From NCBI RefSeq assembly GCF_003334355.1, contig NZ_QOWP01000007.1: 64,000 bases of DNA; one strand, 5' to 3'. The stretch is from Escherichia coli. Lineage in GTDB: Bacteria > Pseudomonadota > Gammaproteobacteria > Enterobacterales > Enterobacteriaceae. Positions 6,488 through 30,668 of this stretch are shown here, in pieces. Made by a program: the position numbers and the translations under genes. The notes under the pieces were generated by a model. The model worked only from the letters and a program-made list of their open reading frames with translations, was not told the origin of the DNA and ran no database searches. Every line of letters starts with the position of its first letter. Positions within the stretch are counted from its first letter, which is position 1.

Positions 6488-6564
6488 GCGTTCATAGCTC
6501 AGTTGGTTAGAGCACCACCTTGACATGGTGGGGGTCGTTGGTTCGAGTCCAATTGAACGCACCA
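6488..6564 (+). tRNA. valV: tRNA-Val (GAC)
   Basis: 77-nt cloverleaf GCGTTCATAGCTCAGTTGGTTAGAGC...anticodon loop CTTGACAT...GGTTCGAGTCC...ACGCACCA, encoded CCA end. Confidence 0.95.
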
Positions 6565-6568
6565 TCCT

Positions 6569-6645
6569 GCGTCCGTAGCTCAGTTGGTTAGAGCACCACC
6601 TTGACATGGTGGGGGTCGGTGGTTCGAGTCCACTCGGACGCACCA
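6569..6645 (+). tRNA. valW: tRNA-Val (GAC), second tandem copy
   Basis: 77-nt near-identical copy 4 bp downstream of valV with differing acceptor and T stems, encoded CCA. Confidence 0.95.
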
Positions 6646-6676
6646 GATTTTCTTAATCTGGTCTTTTCCTTTTTCC
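6643..6676 (+). terminator. Rho-independent terminator of valVW
   Basis: CCAGATT-ttctt-AATCTGG hairpin followed by TCTTTTCCTTTTTCC. Confidence 0.5.
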
Positions 6677-6752
6677 CTCTGTTTCTTCTCTGTATCCAAT
6701 ACGTTAAAAGATTTACACTATCTTCGTATGCGTTATCAGAAGGAGAATCGCT

Positions 6753-7058
6753 ATGGCAACTTTGTTACAACTTCATTTTGCTTTTAATGGCCCATTTGGC
6801 GACGCAATGGCTGAGCAGCTTAAACCGCTTGCTGAGTCGATTAATCAGGAACCTGGTTTTCTGTGGAAGGTATGGACAGAAAGTGAAAAGAACCACGAAG
6901 CCGGTGGGATCTATCTTTTTACTGATGAAAAAAGCGCCCTTGCCTATCTGGAAAAACATACTGCCCGACTTAAAAATCTCGGCGTTGAGGAAGTTGTCGC
7001 CAAAGTTTTCGATGTCAATGAGCCACTGAGTCAAATCAATCAGGCAAAACTCGCCTGA
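6753..7058 (+). CDS. ydhR: Putative monooxygenase YdhR (dimeric alpha/beta barrel)
   Basis: 101-aa [19 protein letters not shown]..., recognised. Confidence 0.85.
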
Positions 7059-24726: not shown

Positions 24727-24797
24727 AGAAAACCCTTAAGTCTGTGCGACACAGGCTTAAGGGTTTCTACCCCATCCGGCGCTTATCTCCGGCACTC
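24727..24797 (-). ncRNA. rydB: Probable small RNA RydB (approximate bounds)
   Basis: Minus-strand hairpin CCCTTAAGcctgtgtcgcacagaCTTAAGGG followed by a U-tract at the expected sufA-ydiH intergenic position; 5' end not determinable by eye. Confidence 0.4.
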
Positions 24798-24987
24798 TCA
24801 GTGGCTTAGCTCTTGAAGGGGCGATAAGAATAATCTCATAAAGCTAACCCGCCGTTTTAACACAAACTGCGATTAGTATTATTTTTGAACAATATCAGGC
24901 GGTAGATAAGCAGTATTAAGAAGGTCATCGAACCTGGACGGAGGTTAATCCAGGTCGATTTGGCGAACTTGCGGCATTAAGTCAGGA

Positions 24988-25275: not shown

Positions 25276-25686
25276 TCACAAAATGGCGGTCGTCAATCGT
25301 GACGAACAGCACAAACGCCCTTTCTCATCGAAGATTTCAATCTGCCAGACCTGGTGACGCGAACCGAGATGCAACGGTTTGCATACGCCGCGCACCCGCC
25401 CTTCTCGTGCCGAGCGGACGTGGTTAGCATTGATTTCCAGACCAACCACTTTTTGCTCACCTTCGGTACATAAATAACCGGCAACGGAACCGATACTTTC
25501 GGCCAGTACCACGGATGCTCCTCCATGCAGCAACCCGAAAGGCTGCTTTGTCCGCGAGTCTACTGGCATTGTCGCTTCAAGGGTGTCATCACCAATATGT
25601 TCAAAGCGAATATCCAGGAACCCCACCATGTTTCCTTCACCCATAGCATTCAGTGCTTCCAGGGTGATTTTCCGTTTCCATATCAT
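25276..25686 (-). CDS. menI: 1,4-dihydroxy-2-naphthoyl-CoA hydrolase (hotdog thioesterase)
   Basis: 136-aa hotdog-fold ORF, position between ydiH and ydiJ. Confidence 0.85.
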   Translation of the reverse strand: MIWKRKITLEALNAMGEGNMVGFLDIRFEHIGDDTLEATMPVDSRTKQPFGLLHGGASVVLAESIGSVAGYLCTEGEQKVVGLEINANHVRSAREGRVRGVCKPLHLGSRHQVWQIEIFDEKGRLCCSSRLTTAIL

Positions 25687-28600
25687 TTAATAATCTCCAG
25701 TAAAGCCTGCACAGGATGGCGTACCCCCGTGCCTTCAACCCGTTTTACCTGGCTACGGCAGGAATATCCGGTCGCCAGACAGCGGTTACGCGGCAGTCGC
25801 TGCATAGCCTGATGCCAGGATAACTCATAGATCCCGAGCGAATTTTCATGGTTTTTCGCTTCATGTCCGTAAGTCCCTGCCATGCCGCAGCAACCCACGC
25901 TGACATTTTCCAGTTTCGCGCCAAAACGGGCAAATATCGCGGCCCATTGTGCTGGCGCACCCGGCAAGGCGGTAACTTCGGTACAGTGACCAAAGAAATA
26001 CCATGATTCACCGCTGACTGTAGCCACTGGCTGTGACTCAAGTGCGCTTGCCAGCCATTCATTCGCCAGTAAGACGTTAAACTCGCCACGTTCCTCGCCC
26101 AGTGCCAGTTTATATTCATCGCGATAACAAAGTACCAGCGCCGGATCGACGCCTACCATTGGCATACCCAGCTTCGCCATACGGTTGAGGAAATCCGCCG
26201 TCTTTTTCGCCGTCTTCGCAAAACGATTAAGAAAGCCTTTGATATGCTGGGCTTTGCCATTTGGTGAAAATGGCAGTAACACAGGCTGGAAACCTAATTT
26301 TTCGACCAGACGGACAAAATCCGCCACCACTTGCGCATCGTAATAGCTGGTAAAGGGGTCCTGCACCACCAACACCGTGCGCGCTTTCTGCTCTGCATTG
26401 AGAGCTTCAAGCTGTTCCAGCGTCATGTTTGCCGAGCGATGCCCCACCATTTGTTGTTGTAGCGAGGGGACCGACAGCAGTGGCAAATCAACCATGCCGA
26501 TATGTTTTTCCGAGAGTTTGCGCACCAGCGGCTGGTTAATGAAGAAGTTAAAGGTTTTCGGCGCACGTGCCATCAGCGGCGCGTAGCTCTCGACCGTAGC
26601 GACGAGGTGGTCGCGCAGCGGACGTAAATAACGGGTGTGATAGAGCTGCAGAAAACGAGAGCGAAACTCCGGCACATCAATTTTGATGGGGCACTGGGTC
26701 GAACACGCTTTACAGGCCAGACAGCCCGACATCGCCTCTTTGACTTCGTGTGAGAAGTCATATTCGCCTTTATTCGCATGCCAGCTATTGCGCGTGCGGG
26801 CAATTAACGTCCGCAAACTGACGCCGGATTCAGGCAGTTCTTGTTCCAGTTTGAGTGGATCAACGCCGCGATCCGCCAACAAACGCAGCCATTCACGCAC
26901 CAGCGTTGCGCGCCCTTTCGGTGAATGAATCCGGTTCTGGGTGATCTTCATCGACGGACACATCGGACTACGGGCATCAAAGTTGAAGCATAAACCGTTG
27001 CCGTTACACTCCATCGCACCGCGCCACTGCTGGCGTACCGCAATGGGGATCTGCCGATCGAATGTACCGCGCTTCACCGCGTCCACTTTCATCATCGGCG
27101 CATCGAGACCTTCTGGCGGGCAAATCTTCCCTGGGTTGAGTCGGTTATGCGGGTCAAATGCCGCTTTCACTTTGCGCAGTTCTGCAAAAAGTTCCTCACC
27201 GAAAAACGCCGGGCTGTATTCAGCGCGAAAACCTTTGCCGTGCTCGCCCCACAACAAACCACCATATTTCGCAGTCAGCGCCACCACGTCATCAGAGATT
27301 TGCTTCATCAAAATCTCTTGTTGCGGATCGCACATATCCAGTGCCGGACGGACGTGCAAGACACCTGCGTCGACGTGACCGAACATACCGTAGCTTAAGC
27401 CGTGGCTGTCGAGCAGCGCGCGAAATTCAGCAATATAATCGGCCAGATGTTCCGGCGGTACGCAGGTATCCTCAGCAAACGGAATTGGCTTAGCGGCACC
27501 TTTGGCATTGCCAAGCAGACCAACGGCTTTTTTGCGCATTGCATAGATACGTTCAACCCCCGCCAGCTCACGGCACATCTGCCAGCCGATGACACCTGCT
27601 TGATGACTGGCGATCAGCTCATCCAACCGCACACAGAGTGCATTTACCCGCTCGTCAATCAGCGCCTCATCATCACCAGCAAATTCCACAATGTTCAGCC
27701 CAAGCATCTCTTTGTCAGGCACATCGGTAATCAACTCGCTGACGGAATGCCAGACAATATCTTCCCGCGCTAGATTCAGCACTTTTGAGTCCACCGTCTC
27801 TACCGAAAGCGCCCGCGCCTCAACCATAAACGGCGCGTTACGCAGCGCTGAGTCAAAAGAGTCATATTTGACATTCACCAGACGGCGCACTTTAGGCAAG
27901 GGCGTAATATCCAGCCGCGCTTCGGTAATAAAGGCCAGCGTCCCTTCTGAACCCGTCAGAATGCGCGTCAGGTCGAACTCGGTCATCTCATCGTTAAAGA
28001 CATGACGCAGATCGTAACCGGTAAGAAAGCGGTTAAGTTTGGGGAAGTTGTCGATGATTAACTGGCGTTGCTGACGGCAACGTTGATAAACCGTGTTATA
28101 AATTCGCCCGATTGTGGTATTGGATTTACCCAGCGTTTCCGCCAGCTCGACGGGTAAAGGTTGCGTATCGAGAATATCGCCCCCCAACAACACCGCGCGT
28201 ACGCCAAGTACGTGATCTGACGTTTTGCCATAGACCAGCGATCCCTGACCAGAAGCATCGGTATTGATCATCCCACCGAGCGTTGCCCGGTTGCTGGTCG
28301 AAAGTTCCGGCGCAAAAAAGTAGCCGAACGGTTTCAGGTACTGATTGAGTTGATCTTTTATCACCCCGGCCTCAACGCGCACCCAGCCCTCTTCAGGGTT
28401 AATTTCGATGATGCGGTTCATATGGCGGGACATATCAACAATAATCCCCTGGTTGAGCGCCTGACCGTTAGTGCCGGTGCCGCCGCCGCGGGGGGTAAAG
28501 ATCAGCGATGAATAGCGTTCCTGCGCGGCAAGACGGGCGATCAGCGCCACATCTGCGGTTGAACGCGGAAATACCACCGCATCGGGGAGAAGTTGGTAAA

Positions 28601-28739
28601 TACTGTTGTCGGTCGACATTGTCAGACGATCGGCATAACTTGTCGCCGTATCGCCGGTAAAACCTTGTTGCTCCAGCTCTTGCAAAAAATTAAGCACCAG
28701 TTGAACGACGCCGGGTGCCTGGGAAATCTGTGGAATCAT
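25683..28739 (-). CDS. ydiJ: FAD-linked oxidoreductase with C-terminal Fe-S/CCG domains YdiJ
   Basis: 1018-aa ORF, FAD-binding N-terminus, CxxCxxCxxxCP motifs. Confidence 0.85.
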   Translation of the reverse strand: MIPQISQAPGVVQLVLNFLQELEQQGFTGDTATSYADRLTMSTDNSIYQLLPDAVVFPRSTADVALIARLAAQERYSSLIFTPRGGGTGTNGQALNQGIIVDMSRHMNRIIEINPEEGWVRVEAGVIKDQLNQYLKPFGYFFAPELSTSNRATLGGMINTDASGQGSLVYGKTSDHVLGVRAVLLGGDILDTQPLPVELAETLGKSNTTIGRIYNTVYQRCRQQRQLIIDNFPKLNRFLTGYDLRHVFNDEMTEFDLTRILTGSEGTLAFITEARLDITPLPKVRRLVNVKYDSFDSALRNAPFMVEARALSVETVDSKVLNLAREDIVWHSVSELITDVPDKEMLGLNIVEFAGDDEALIDERVNALCVRLDELIASHQAGVIGWQMCRELAGVERIYAMRKKAVGLLGNAKGAAKPIPFAEDTCVPPEHLADYIAEFRALLDSHGLSYGMFGHVDAGVLHVRPALDMCDPQQEILMKQISDDVVALTAKYGGLLWGEHGKGFRAEYSPAFFGEELFAELRKVKAAFDPHNRLNPGKICPPEGLDAPMMKVDAVKRGTFDRQIPIAVRQQWRGAMECNGNGLCFNFDARSPMCPSMKITQNRIHSPKGRATLVREWLRLLADRGVDPLKLEQELPESGVSLRTLIARTRNSWHANKGEYDFSHEVKEAMSGCLACKACSTQCPIKIDVPEFRSRFLQLYHTRYLRPLRDHLVATVESYAPLMARAPKTFNFFINQPLVRKLSEKHIGMVDLPLLSVPSLQQQMVGHRSANMTLEQLEALNAEQKARTVLVVQDPFTSYYDAQVVADFVRLVEKLGFQPVLLPFSPNGKAQHIKGFLNRFAKTAKKTADFLNRMAKLGMPMVGVDPALVLCYRDEYKLALGEERGEFNVLLANEWLASALESQPVATVSGESWYFFGHCTEVTALPGAPAQWAAIFARFGAKLENVSVGCCGMAGTYGHEAKNHENSLGIYELSWHQAMQRLPRNRCLATGYSCRSQVKRVEGTGVRHPVQALLEIIK

Positions 28740-28824
28740 TATATTGACCCTTTCCTGCGGTCTGTGATGTAGGTCGATACACTATTCTTTCAGGCGGCTG
28801 CAATAGCGCACTGAAAGGTGATGT

Positions 28825-28965
28825 TTATTTACTCTATGGATTTCGAGTTGCAGGAAGGCGGCAAGCGAGTGAACTCCAGGAGCTTACAATAGTAAGTGAC
28901 TGGGGTGAACGAACGTAGCCGCAGCACATGCAACTTGAAATACGACGAGTAAATCGTTTGCGTGT
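28825..28965. repeat. ERIC/IRU enterobacterial repetitive intergenic element
   Basis: Contains AGTAAGTGACTGGGGTGAACG and CCAGGAGCTTAC cores matching the ERIC consensus and primer sites; lies in ydiJ-ydiK intergenic gap. Confidence 0.55.
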
Positions 28966-29127
28966 TGCCTGAGTTGTTGTACCACATTTTTTTCTAACAC
29001 GCCCATCAGAATTAAGGGCAGAATCGGCCTGTTAAAAATCGCTGAAATTGCTCATCATTATGCAGGTGAGTTTCGCGTATTCACGTCGCGTCGACGATTT
29101 GACGCACAAAAAAGGTGAAAAGTAGTT

Positions 29128-30240
29128 ATGGTAAATGTTCGTCAGCCCAGGGATGTCGCACAAATTCTGCTTTCGGTGCTGTTTTTAGCCATCATGATTG
29201 TGGCATGTCTGTGGATTGTTCAACCCTTTATTCTCGGCTTTGCATGGGCCGGTACGGTGGTTATCGCCACCTGGCCGGTATTGTTACGTTTGCAAAAGAT
29301 CATGTTTGGCCGCCGCTCTCTCGCCGTTCTGGTGATGACGCTGTTATTAGTGATGGTGTTTATCATCCCTATTGCTTTGCTGGTTAACAGTATCGTCGAC
29401 GGCAGCGGCCCGCTAATTAAAGCCATTTCCAGCGGTGACATGACGTTACCCGATCTGGCGTGGCTTAATACCATTCCGGTGATTGGCGCGAAGCTGTATG
29501 CAGGCTGGCACAACTTGCTGGATATGGGGGGGACGGCGATCATGGCGAAAGTCCGCCCTTATATTGGCACCACCACCACCTGGTTCGTTGGGCAGGCGGC
29601 GCATATCGGGCGCTTTATGGTGCATTGTGCGCTGATGCTTCTCTTCAGTGCCCTGCTGTACTGGCGCGGTGAACAGGTTGCACAAGGCATTCGCCATTTT
29701 GCAACCCGTCTGGCAGGCGTTCGCGGAGATGCCGCCGTACTGCTGGCGGCACAGGCTATCCGCGCGGTGGCGCTGGGTGTGGTGGTGACGGCGTTAGTAC
29801 AGGCAGTGCTTGGCGGTATCGGCCTCGCCGTTTCCGGCGTACCTTATGCAACTTTGCTAACGGTGTTAATGATCCTCTCCTGCCTTGTCCAGCTTGGCCC
29901 GTTGCCGGTACTGATTCCGGCGATTATCTGGCTCTACTGGACCGGCGATACCACCTGGGGAACGGTATTGTTAGTGTGGAGCGGTGTGGTTGGCACGCTG
30001 GATAACGTCATCCGCCCAATGTTAATTCGCATGGGTGCCGATTTACCGCTGATCCTGATCCTCTCTGGCGTTATTGGTGGTTTGATTGCTTTCGGGATGA
30101 TCGGTCTGTTTATTGGTCCGGTTCTGTTAGCCGTTTCCTGGCGTCTGTTTGCCGCGTGGGTGGAAGAAGTCCCGCCGCCGACGGACCAACCGGAAGAAAT
30201 TCTCGAAGAACTTGGCGAAATCGAGAAACCGAATAAGTAA
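29128..30240 (+). CDS. ydiK: AI-2E/UPF0118-family inner-membrane transporter YdiK
   Basis: 370-aa polytopic ORF. Confidence 0.85.
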   Translation: MVNVRQPRDVAQILLSVLFLAIMIVACLWIVQPFILGFAWAGTVVIATWPVLLRLQKIMFGRRSLAVLVMTLLLVMVFIIPIALLVNSIVDGSGPLIKAISSGDMTLPDLAWLNTIPVIGAKLYAGWHNLLDMGGTAIMAKVRPYIGTTTTWFVGQAAHIGRFMVHCALMLLFSALLYWRGEQVAQGIRHFATRLAGVRGDAAVLLAAQAIRAVALGVVVTALVQAVLGGIGLAVSGVPYATLLTVLMILSCLVQLGPLPVLIPAIIWLYWTGDTTWGTVLLVWSGVVGTLDNVIRPMLIRMGADLPLILILSGVIGGLIAFGMIGLFIGPVLLAVSWRLFAAWVEEVPPPTDQPEEILEELGEIEKPNK

Positions 30241-30425: not shown

Positions 30426-30530
30426 ACGGTTATAAATCAACATATTGATTTATAAGCATGGAAATCCCCTGAGTGAAACAACGAATTGCTGTGTGTAGTC
30501 TTTGCCCATCTCCCACGATGGGCTTTTTTT
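30426..30530 (+). ncRNA. rprA: RprA small regulatory RNA
   Basis: Recognised sequence ACGGTTATAAATCAACATATTGATTTATAAGCATGGAAATCCCCTGAGTGAAACAACGAATTGCTGTGTGTAGTCTTTGCCCATCTCCCACGATGGGCTTTTTTT including terminator. Confidence 0.85.
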
Positions 30531-30668
30531 TAACATTTTTCCGCATCGCTACCTCGCCCCTCACTCTTTCCAATAATGTTGCACAAGATACTGTGACTCT
30601 CTTCAAGCCGTCAGCAGGCTGATAATGTTATTTATATTTTATTGTTTATTTCATGCAGCCATTACACG

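Follow-up and report, generated by a model that had tools for sequence, protein, structure and literature searches.

A full-length ERIC element in the ydiJ–ydiK spacer of Escherichia coli and its presence/absence polymorphism among strains

Results

Organization of the ydiJ–ydiK spacer

The window, which denotes here the whole 64,000-nucleotide stretch of Escherichia coli DNA that was analysed (contig NZ_QOWP01000007.1 of assembly GCF_003334355.1), contains the divergent gene pair ydiJ (minus strand) and ydiK (plus strand). The two genes are separated by a spacer of 388 nt, inside which lies an ERIC element. The function of YdiJ as D-2-hydroxyglutarate dehydrogenase is taken from PMC9504171. 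The genes and the parts of the element are as follows.

25683–28739, minus strand: ydiJ, D-2-hydroxyglutarate dehydrogenase, an open reading frame of 1018 codons assigned from matching RefSeq records; its leader contains the ERIC element
28827–28852, no strand: left terminal inverted repeat arm (26 nt; the two arms are 81% complementary, with 76 nt between them)
28828–28953, plus strand: full-length ERIC (IRU, RU-1) element of 126 nt, delimited by end-to-end alignment to the consensus
28890–28911, plus strand: conserved central core, equivalent to the ERIC2 primer site (2 mismatches in 22 nt), located by matching the primer sequence
28929–28954, no strand: right terminal inverted repeat arm, which abuts the conserved block ATCGTTTGCGT
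29128–30240, plus strand: ydiK, AI-2E family transporter, an open reading frame of 370 codons assigned from matching RefSeq records

We surveyed this spacer by searching one genome per species with YdiK, which gave 80 loci (L004–L083); E. fergusonii, E. marmotae, E. ruysiae, S. enterica subsp. enterica, and S. bongori are not part of this set. Among these Enterobacteriaceae, the architecture of the spacer is strikingly constant. The first conserved block, ATCGTTTGCGT, precedes a second block, TATCACATTTTTTT, by 26–29 nt in all but three of the loci that have both, and the second block stands about 130–150 nt before the ydiK start in most loci. The single variable distance is the one between the ydiJ start codon and the first block, which ranges from 23 to 235 nt. 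This hypervariable point lies between the ydiJ ribosome-binding site and ATCGTTTGCGT (28740–28960 in the window and about 1100–1500 in the surveyed loci). Unrelated inserts of 35–200 nt are found at this point, among them many small palindromes and four independent ERICs; for the unrelated inserts of other genera, the range is 35–170 nt.

In Citrobacter amalonaticus S646 (L021, about 1130–1350), an ERIC-like palindrome with a large internal insertion is found between both conserved blocks and represents a different insertion point within the same spacer. Elsewhere in the window, the features that reach the Rfam gathering level are two tRNAs with an overlapping HPnc0260 antisense hit, rydB, RprA, STnc540, and the Phe leader, at 6488–6769, 24762–24822, 30426–30533, 58202–58360, and 62200–62324. 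Matching records were checked for rydB, RprA, and the Phe leader, and these three are consistent with the annotation of the suf-ydi-pheST region in E. coli.

Identity and fold of the element

ERIC is a known type of element. Under the names ERIC, IRU, and RU-1 it was reportedly treated by Sharples and Lloyd in 1990, Hulton et al. in 1991, and Wilson and Sharp in 2006. These elements have been known since 1990–91, and ERIC-PCR typing rests on them. The sequence at 28828–28953 is an ordinary full-length copy. We aligned it semi-globally with the 127-nt E. coli ERIC consensus from Table 1a of Delihas 2007 (PMC2759123; there after Wilson and Sharp 2006), which yielded 103 identities in 127 positions (81%) with one 1-nt gap. 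The agreement with the Salmonella reference copy SeRU-1 is even higher, at 109 of 127 (86%). The original prediction had named the element from its core and had placed it at 28825–28965; the position was right, with a slightly generous right edge. A poor fit outside the short core, against which the prediction itself had cautioned, is not seen, as the alignment is far longer than the core and runs from end to end.

The ERIC2 primer core AAGTAAGTGACTGGGGTGAGCG matches 28890–28911 with 2 mismatches, one of which sits 3 nt from the 3′ end of the primer, and the 21-mer core quoted in the original prediction has 1 mismatch at this locus. The ERIC2 core match is the only one in the 64 kb, and none of 100 shuffled sequences produced one. 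For the ERIC1R primer, nothing is found at up to 3 mismatches; this half of the element is degraded by an indel and by mismatches, and goes unmatched because of the indel. With the ERIC2 mismatch near the 3′ end and a degraded ERIC1R half, the ERIC-PCR primers fit this copy poorly. The consensus (“ERIC2-sense”) orientation of the element is on the plus strand, and therefore the ydiJ mRNA holds the reverse complement of ERIC.

The termini of the element read TTTAC…GTAAA (28828–28832 and 28949–28953), compared with TATAC…GTATA in the consensus. This double change keeps the complementarity of the ends and is common to all Escherichia orthologues. It is compatible with a self-templated correction of the palindrome. 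A duplication of a TA target has been described for ERIC (PMC3184786). The dinucleotides that flank the E. coli ydiJ–ydiK copy are TT and AA, so that an intact TA duplication is absent. In the RefSeq record of K-12, neither a repeat nor an RNA feature is annotated within the ydiJ–ydiK spacer.

A long hairpin is predicted for both strands of the element; its minimum free energy is −58.8 kcal/mol (z = −9.5) for the plus and −41.2 kcal/mol (z = −5.2) for the minus strand. None of 200 shuffled sequences folds as well as 28828–28953. For most ERIC copies the “forward” strand folds 10–17 kcal/mol better than the reverse strand. The ydiJ mRNA bears the weaker-folding strand, and the copy in an Enterobacter locus described below (L049) is oppositely oriented, which together argues against strong selection on RNA structure. 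The seven Escherichia orthologues of the element have only about 10 variable columns, too few for a covariation test.

Copy family and age

With a 128-nt ERIC query, 56,464 places were found in the complete E. coli genomes. All 5426 genomes contain the family, with a median of 12 places per genome (range 2–18), and the twelve best-matching genomes listed have 11–16 related places each. Related copies also occur in loci of Enterobacter, Buttiauxella, and Yersinia that had been fetched for other purposes. All sequence-level defining features of ERIC are thus present at 28828–28953, and the identity proposed by the original prediction is borne out by the full-length consensus alignment, the inverted arms, the hairpin fold, and a multicopy family in every E. 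coli genome.

The copy resembles the ERIC family in length (126 versus 127 nt), in its end-to-end match including the ERIC-PCR core, and in forming an imperfect palindrome. Like other members, it is intergenic yet transcribed, belongs to a dispersed multicopy set, and is present or absent depending on the strain. It differs in its altered termini, the lack of an intact TA, and the degraded ERIC1R site, and also in that the polymorphism at ydiJ–ydiK includes a linked, unique segment of 58 nt.

At the identical position, a divergent “E. coli” representative, Escherichia sp. E1V33, E. albertii, and E. whittamii have orthologous ERICs with 96–99% identity. Orthologues at the same position across Escherichia species indicate that the ydiJ–ydiK copy is ancient and has not moved. 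ERIC is not known to have a transposase, and the element at this locus would be an old, immobile copy of a non-autonomous MITE.

A further ERIC was noted in the ybtP–ybtA spacer of the E. coli plasmid pH222-1 (L003, 1501–1690), where about 81 bp of inserted DNA interrupt it. This copy sits in the promoter region of the yersiniabactin island, which is plasmid-borne there.

Filled and short alleles of the spacer

ERIC content is reported to vary from strain to strain (PMC10969869), and the same had been predicted for this copy, correctly so. Using a 651-nt spacer query at a coverage of at least 80%, we found the filled allele in 4256 of the 5426 complete E. coli genomes (about 78%). About 1169 genomes (about 22%) carry a short allele; in nearly all genomes without the filled allele, the query matches as two pieces that together span 476 nt. 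K-12, B, O157:H7 EDL933, and O104:H4 strains have the filled allele, and strains 536 and CFT073, which we take to be B2 archetypes, have the short one. Alignment of the alleles defines two further features.

28769–28826, no strand: 58-nt companion segment with a small predicted hairpin of its own, TTTCAG…CTGAAA (−14.9 to −15.5 kcal/mol)
28770–28951, no strand: polymorphic block of 182 nt, in whose place the short allele has the 7 nt AGAGATT (from aligning the window with K-12 and strain 22AR0322)

The spacer is 388 nt long in the filled allele and 213 nt in the short allele, so that the net difference amounts to 175 bp and not to 127. The 4256 ERIC-bearing genomes, and no others, have the 58-nt segment, as a single copy at one place in each. 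Intermediate alleles with the ERIC only or the 58-nt segment only were not found among the 5426 genomes. The short allele is therefore not an empty site that differs by the element alone, as the difference comprises the ERIC, the 58-nt segment, and junction changes. An indel of 175 bp rather than 127 bp indicates that a single, simple insertion does not account for the history of the locus.

The 3′ part of the 58-nt segment resembles an insert at the same site in Salmonella arizonae (p of about 0.002, uncorrected for 12 tests). We also considered the segment as a decayed, centrally deleted ERIC of the kind present in L042 and L029; this was rejected, since its local alignments with ERIC consensus sequences and with those remnants score no better than those of shuffled sequences (p = 0.09–0.97), and since it is single copy in E. 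coli. One genome gave a deviant match to the spacer query, with 93% coverage and a span of 627 nt (NZ_CP018109.1, E. coli MRSN346595; H102). A “hypothetical protein” is annotated there where ydiK is expected, and the strain may carry a further rearranged allele.

Distribution of the alleles among backgrounds

Outside E. coli, the filled allele is also found in E. albertii and E. whittamii, and the short allele also in Escherichia sp. MOD1-EC7003. Within E. coli, the short allele occurs on at least two flanking haplotypes, one with B2-type flanks and one that is K-12-like. The latter is represented by strain 22AR0322 (L086), whose flanks show 0 differences in 440 nt and 2 in 593 nt to K-12 (L084), whereas the flanks of strain 536 (L085) differ from K-12 by about 2.7%. 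The left flank of 22AR0322 matches K-12 for 500 nt or more, and its right flank for 300 nt or more. In an evenly spaced listing, the 22AR0322 type accounts for about 2 of 13 short-allele genomes. The closest markers that tell the B2 type apart are at −104 and +75, which points to a very short conversion tract or to an unsampled donor.

Outgroup Escherichia species with a filled allele and E. coli genomes with a short one are at odds with one insertion event along a clonal tree. The presence of both alleles in other Escherichia species and on different haplotypes argues for a reshuffling by recombination, and homologous recombination that moves the alleles among backgrounds is probably the simplest account. 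The original prediction had regarded the element as a potential recombination site. This part is unsupported: the data show recombination around the locus, and nothing found here points to recombination through the ERIC itself. The proposed use of the locus as a strain marker holds insofar as the marker is clean and binary; it is not strictly clonal, because the short allele is found on at least two flanking haplotypes. The practical gain is an exact, quantified binary marker (a spacer of 388 versus 213 nt), to be used with the caution that recombination has shifted the alleles among backgrounds.

The short spacer has the same length (213 nt) as that of five Citrobacter loci (L011, L012, L014, L016, and L027), which have a similar junction, GTGAATTTAATCG. 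The spacer of C. amalonaticus is 205 nt long and has the closest junction (GAGAGTTAATCG versus GAGAGATTAATCG). Considering the Citrobacter-like length and junction, together with a sequence AGAGATT that is not derivable by simple deletion, we read the short allele as probably ancestral-like. The AGAGATT heptanucleotide and a spacer length shared with Citrobacter likewise make it unlikely that the short allele arose by simple deletion.

Recurrent ERIC insertion beside the conserved block

Three of the other loci carry an ERIC in the same stretch of the spacer. In Enterobacter sp. JUb54 (L042) the element has the same plus orientation as in E. coli, and in Enterobacter genomosp. O (L049) it is in the opposite (minus) orientation. 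L051 has one ERIC in plus orientation and a second one closer to ydiK. The first ERIC in each of the three loci ends 0–3 nt from the first conserved block ATCGTTTGCGT, and TA is found at both sides of the element in L042 and L049. The contig of L051 is titled Chryseobacterium sp. 18061, yet it encodes enterobacterial YdiJ and YdiK that are 83–87% identical to those of E. coli, and is probably a mislabelled or contaminated assembly.

The ERICs of L042, L049, and L051 are 69–74% identical to the E. coli copy, and copies from unrelated loci 68–69%. Every copy is nearer to the consensus (76–85%) than to another copy (64–81%), indicating that the insertions in the three other lineages were independent. 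The E. coli copy would have entered at the point that TA bounds on both sides of the element in L042 and L049; this point adjoins the conserved ydiJ/ydiK promoter block and is situated in E. coli about 86 nt ahead of the ydiJ start codon.

Transcription through the element

The 5′ ends mapped for the ydiJ region in K-12 by Kim et al. 2012 (PMC3415461, Table S1) were placed on the window by subtracting 1,737,970 from the NC_000913.2 coordinates, and the positions were checked against the printed upstream sequences.

28819, minus strand: second ydiJ 5′ end (NC_000913.2 1766789, 25 reads, 80-nt untranslated region; PMC3415461)
28898, plus strand: very weak 5′ end inside the ERIC (1766868, 3 reads; PMC3415461)
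28968, minus strand: main ydiJ transcription start (NC_000913.2 1766938, 49 reads, 229-nt 5′ untranslated region; PMC3415461)
28976–28984, minus strand: putative extended −10 element TGGTACAAC for the ydiJ start, from reading the sequence upstream of the mapped start
29066, plus strand: weak ydiK start (1767036, 2 reads; PMC3415461)

The main promoter of ydiJ is on the far side of the element, and the ERIC thus constitutes nucleotides +16 to +141 of the 229-nt ydiJ leader on the minus strand. The ydiK start at 29066 is downstream of the element, which places the ERIC outside the ydiK transcript. The putative TGGTACAAC element falls in a block that is conserved across genera. A consensus σ70 scan of 28650–29200 called no promoter, including TGGTACAAC; given that 5′ ends have been mapped there, the scan is uninformative. 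The Cappable-seq supplement (PMC4782308) contains no start-site coordinates for the ydiJ–ydiK region, and the paper on the ydiJ enzyme (PMC9504171) does not mention the native promoter.

Folding of the complete leader predicts a self-contained ERIC hairpin (126 nt) and, after it, a separate small hairpin from the 58-nt segment. The leader of the short allele would be about 54 nt long, and the predicted pairing around the ydiJ ribosome-binding site is identical in the filled and the short leader. The 5′ end at 28819 lies 9 nt past the ERIC, in an AU-rich linker between both hairpins that is single-stranded in the predicted fold. This end represents either an RNase cleavage or processing site or a weak internal promoter.

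Comparison with other transcribed repeats and RNA families

In the accounts that PMC10969869 and PMC3184786 give of De Gregorio et al. 2005, Yersinia ERICs are likewise cotranscribed with a flanking gene, form an RNA hairpin, and are associated with a 5′ end in an adjoining AU-rich stretch. In contrast to the ydiJ copy, which lies in a 5′ leader, the Yersinia elements in these accounts mostly occupy gene 3′ ends, and their action depends on an RNase E site that lies within the terminal repeat.

Three Rfam families align to the arms and core of the element, namely V_AS5 (RF02818), Ysr49 (RF02766), and STnc70 (RF02069), with E values of 5e-08, 8e-04, and 0.18. In a search of the whole window, none of them reached its gathering threshold (42.7 versus 96, 29.5 versus 95, and 18.6 versus 40 bits, respectively). 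STnc70 matches the arms alone and skips the 76-nt centre. The sub-threshold alignments to V_AS5 (Vibrio), Ysr49 (Yersinia), and STnc70 (Salmonella) fall at 28824–28992. The three families appear to be ERIC-related transcripts of other genera and not of the ydiJ–ydiK locus.

The Correia elements of Neisseria resemble the ydiJ ERIC in being short, non-autonomous MITEs with inverted repeats that are cotranscribed and form a hairpin. Correia hairpins may serve as an RNase substrate or carry a promoter, and their effects have been demonstrated experimentally. They differ from the ydiJ ERIC in their unrelated sequence and host range.

A 52-codon open reading frame with an ATG start (28829–28987, minus strand) spans the whole ERIC, and its C-terminal part is similar to the “RU-1 ORF” of Delihas 2007 (PMC2759123). 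We found no sign of translation of this reading frame.

Discussion

It is highly likely that the ydiJ–ydiK ERIC is an old and immobile element that rides as a near-neutral passenger in the ydiJ leader, with a short allele that is ancestral and alleles that have been moved among backgrounds by recombination. The polarity of the two alleles could also be the reverse, with the short allele having arisen in the E. coli lineage by a secondary deletion of the ERIC and neighbouring DNA, for example stimulated by the palindrome. The filled allele is carried by E. albertii and E. whittamii, both of which diverge outside the E. coli clade, as expected from such a deletion; the missing block exceeds the ERIC in size, and the likeness of the 3′ part of the 58-nt segment to the Salmonella arizonae insert suggests that the longer form may be old. 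We nevertheless regard a secondary deletion as unlikely. The heptanucleotide AGAGATT is absent from the filled allele, so that no simple deletion yields the short one, and the short spacer is exactly as long as in five Citrobacter loci (213 nt), with a junction like that of C. amalonaticus, GAGAGTTAATCG. In addition, the same short junction is found on a different haplotype in Escherichia sp. MOD1-EC7003.

With regard to function, a near-neutral passenger appears most likely, and a modest effect, if there is one, would be exerted solely via the stability or processing of the ydiJ mRNA. The route would be either a 5′-proximal stem-loop or a cleavage in the AU-rich linker at the second 5′ end. 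If the 28819 end were a genuine promoter inside the ERIC, the element would have a transcriptional role, which would count against a mere passenger. A stronger proposal is that selection maintains the ERIC and the 58-nt hairpin as a cis-regulatory module in the ydiJ leader, a 5′-proximal stabilising stem-loop or an entry site for RNase E/III, that tunes D-2-hydroxyglutarate dehydrogenase, in which case carriers of the short allele would express ydiJ differently. A stretch of 15 nt separates the ERIC from the 5′ end mapped for the ydiJ mRNA, the second 5′ end follows directly after the hairpin in the AU-rich linker, and the parts of PMC10969869 and PMC3184786 on Yersinia report that transcript ERICs alter mRNA levels via an RNase E site. 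The same leader position is held by four independent ERIC insertions across genera, and the terminal base changes keep complementarity. Yet the ERIC is missing here from about 22% of E. coli and from most enterobacterial genera, and the same-site inserts of other genera are mutually unrelated. The strand that is transcribed is the weaker-folding one, L049 is reversed, the predicted structure of the ribosome-binding site is unaltered, and self-correction of the palindrome accounts for the paired terminal change without selection. A selected module is therefore quite improbable in our view. An independent small RNA or small protein encoded by the region, in place of a mere repeat, is less plausible by far and would be very surprising. 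The sub-threshold Rfam matches (V_AS5, 42.7 bits; Ysr49, 29.5 bits; STnc70, 18.6 bits), the plus-strand 5′ end within the ERIC (3 reads), and the 52-codon minus-strand reading frame, of a kind that PMC2759123 notes for ERIC generally, could be taken to suggest it. However, these scores are far under the gathering thresholds of 96, 95, and 40 bits, and the alignments run through the ERIC palindrome; the 3 reads at 28898 do not rise above noise, the ydiJ–ydiK intergenic region contains no terminator-like site after the element, and K-12 RefSeq has no annotation here. The reading frame itself is a generic by-product of the ERIC sequence.

As a near-neutral passenger, the ERIC is of little import in itself. 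The filled and short alleles do provide a simple natural system in which to relate an ERIC hairpin in a 5′ leader to expression. It is conceivable, albeit rather unlikely, that the point beside the ydiJ promoter block is a preferred site for the landing or retention of ERIC hairpins, that the hairpin alters the stability or processing of the ydiJ mRNA, and that short-allele strains, including 536 and CFT073, differ heritably in this respect. If this were true, a MITE would give short-allele E. coli a heritable difference in D-2-hydroxyglutarate dehydrogenase expression.
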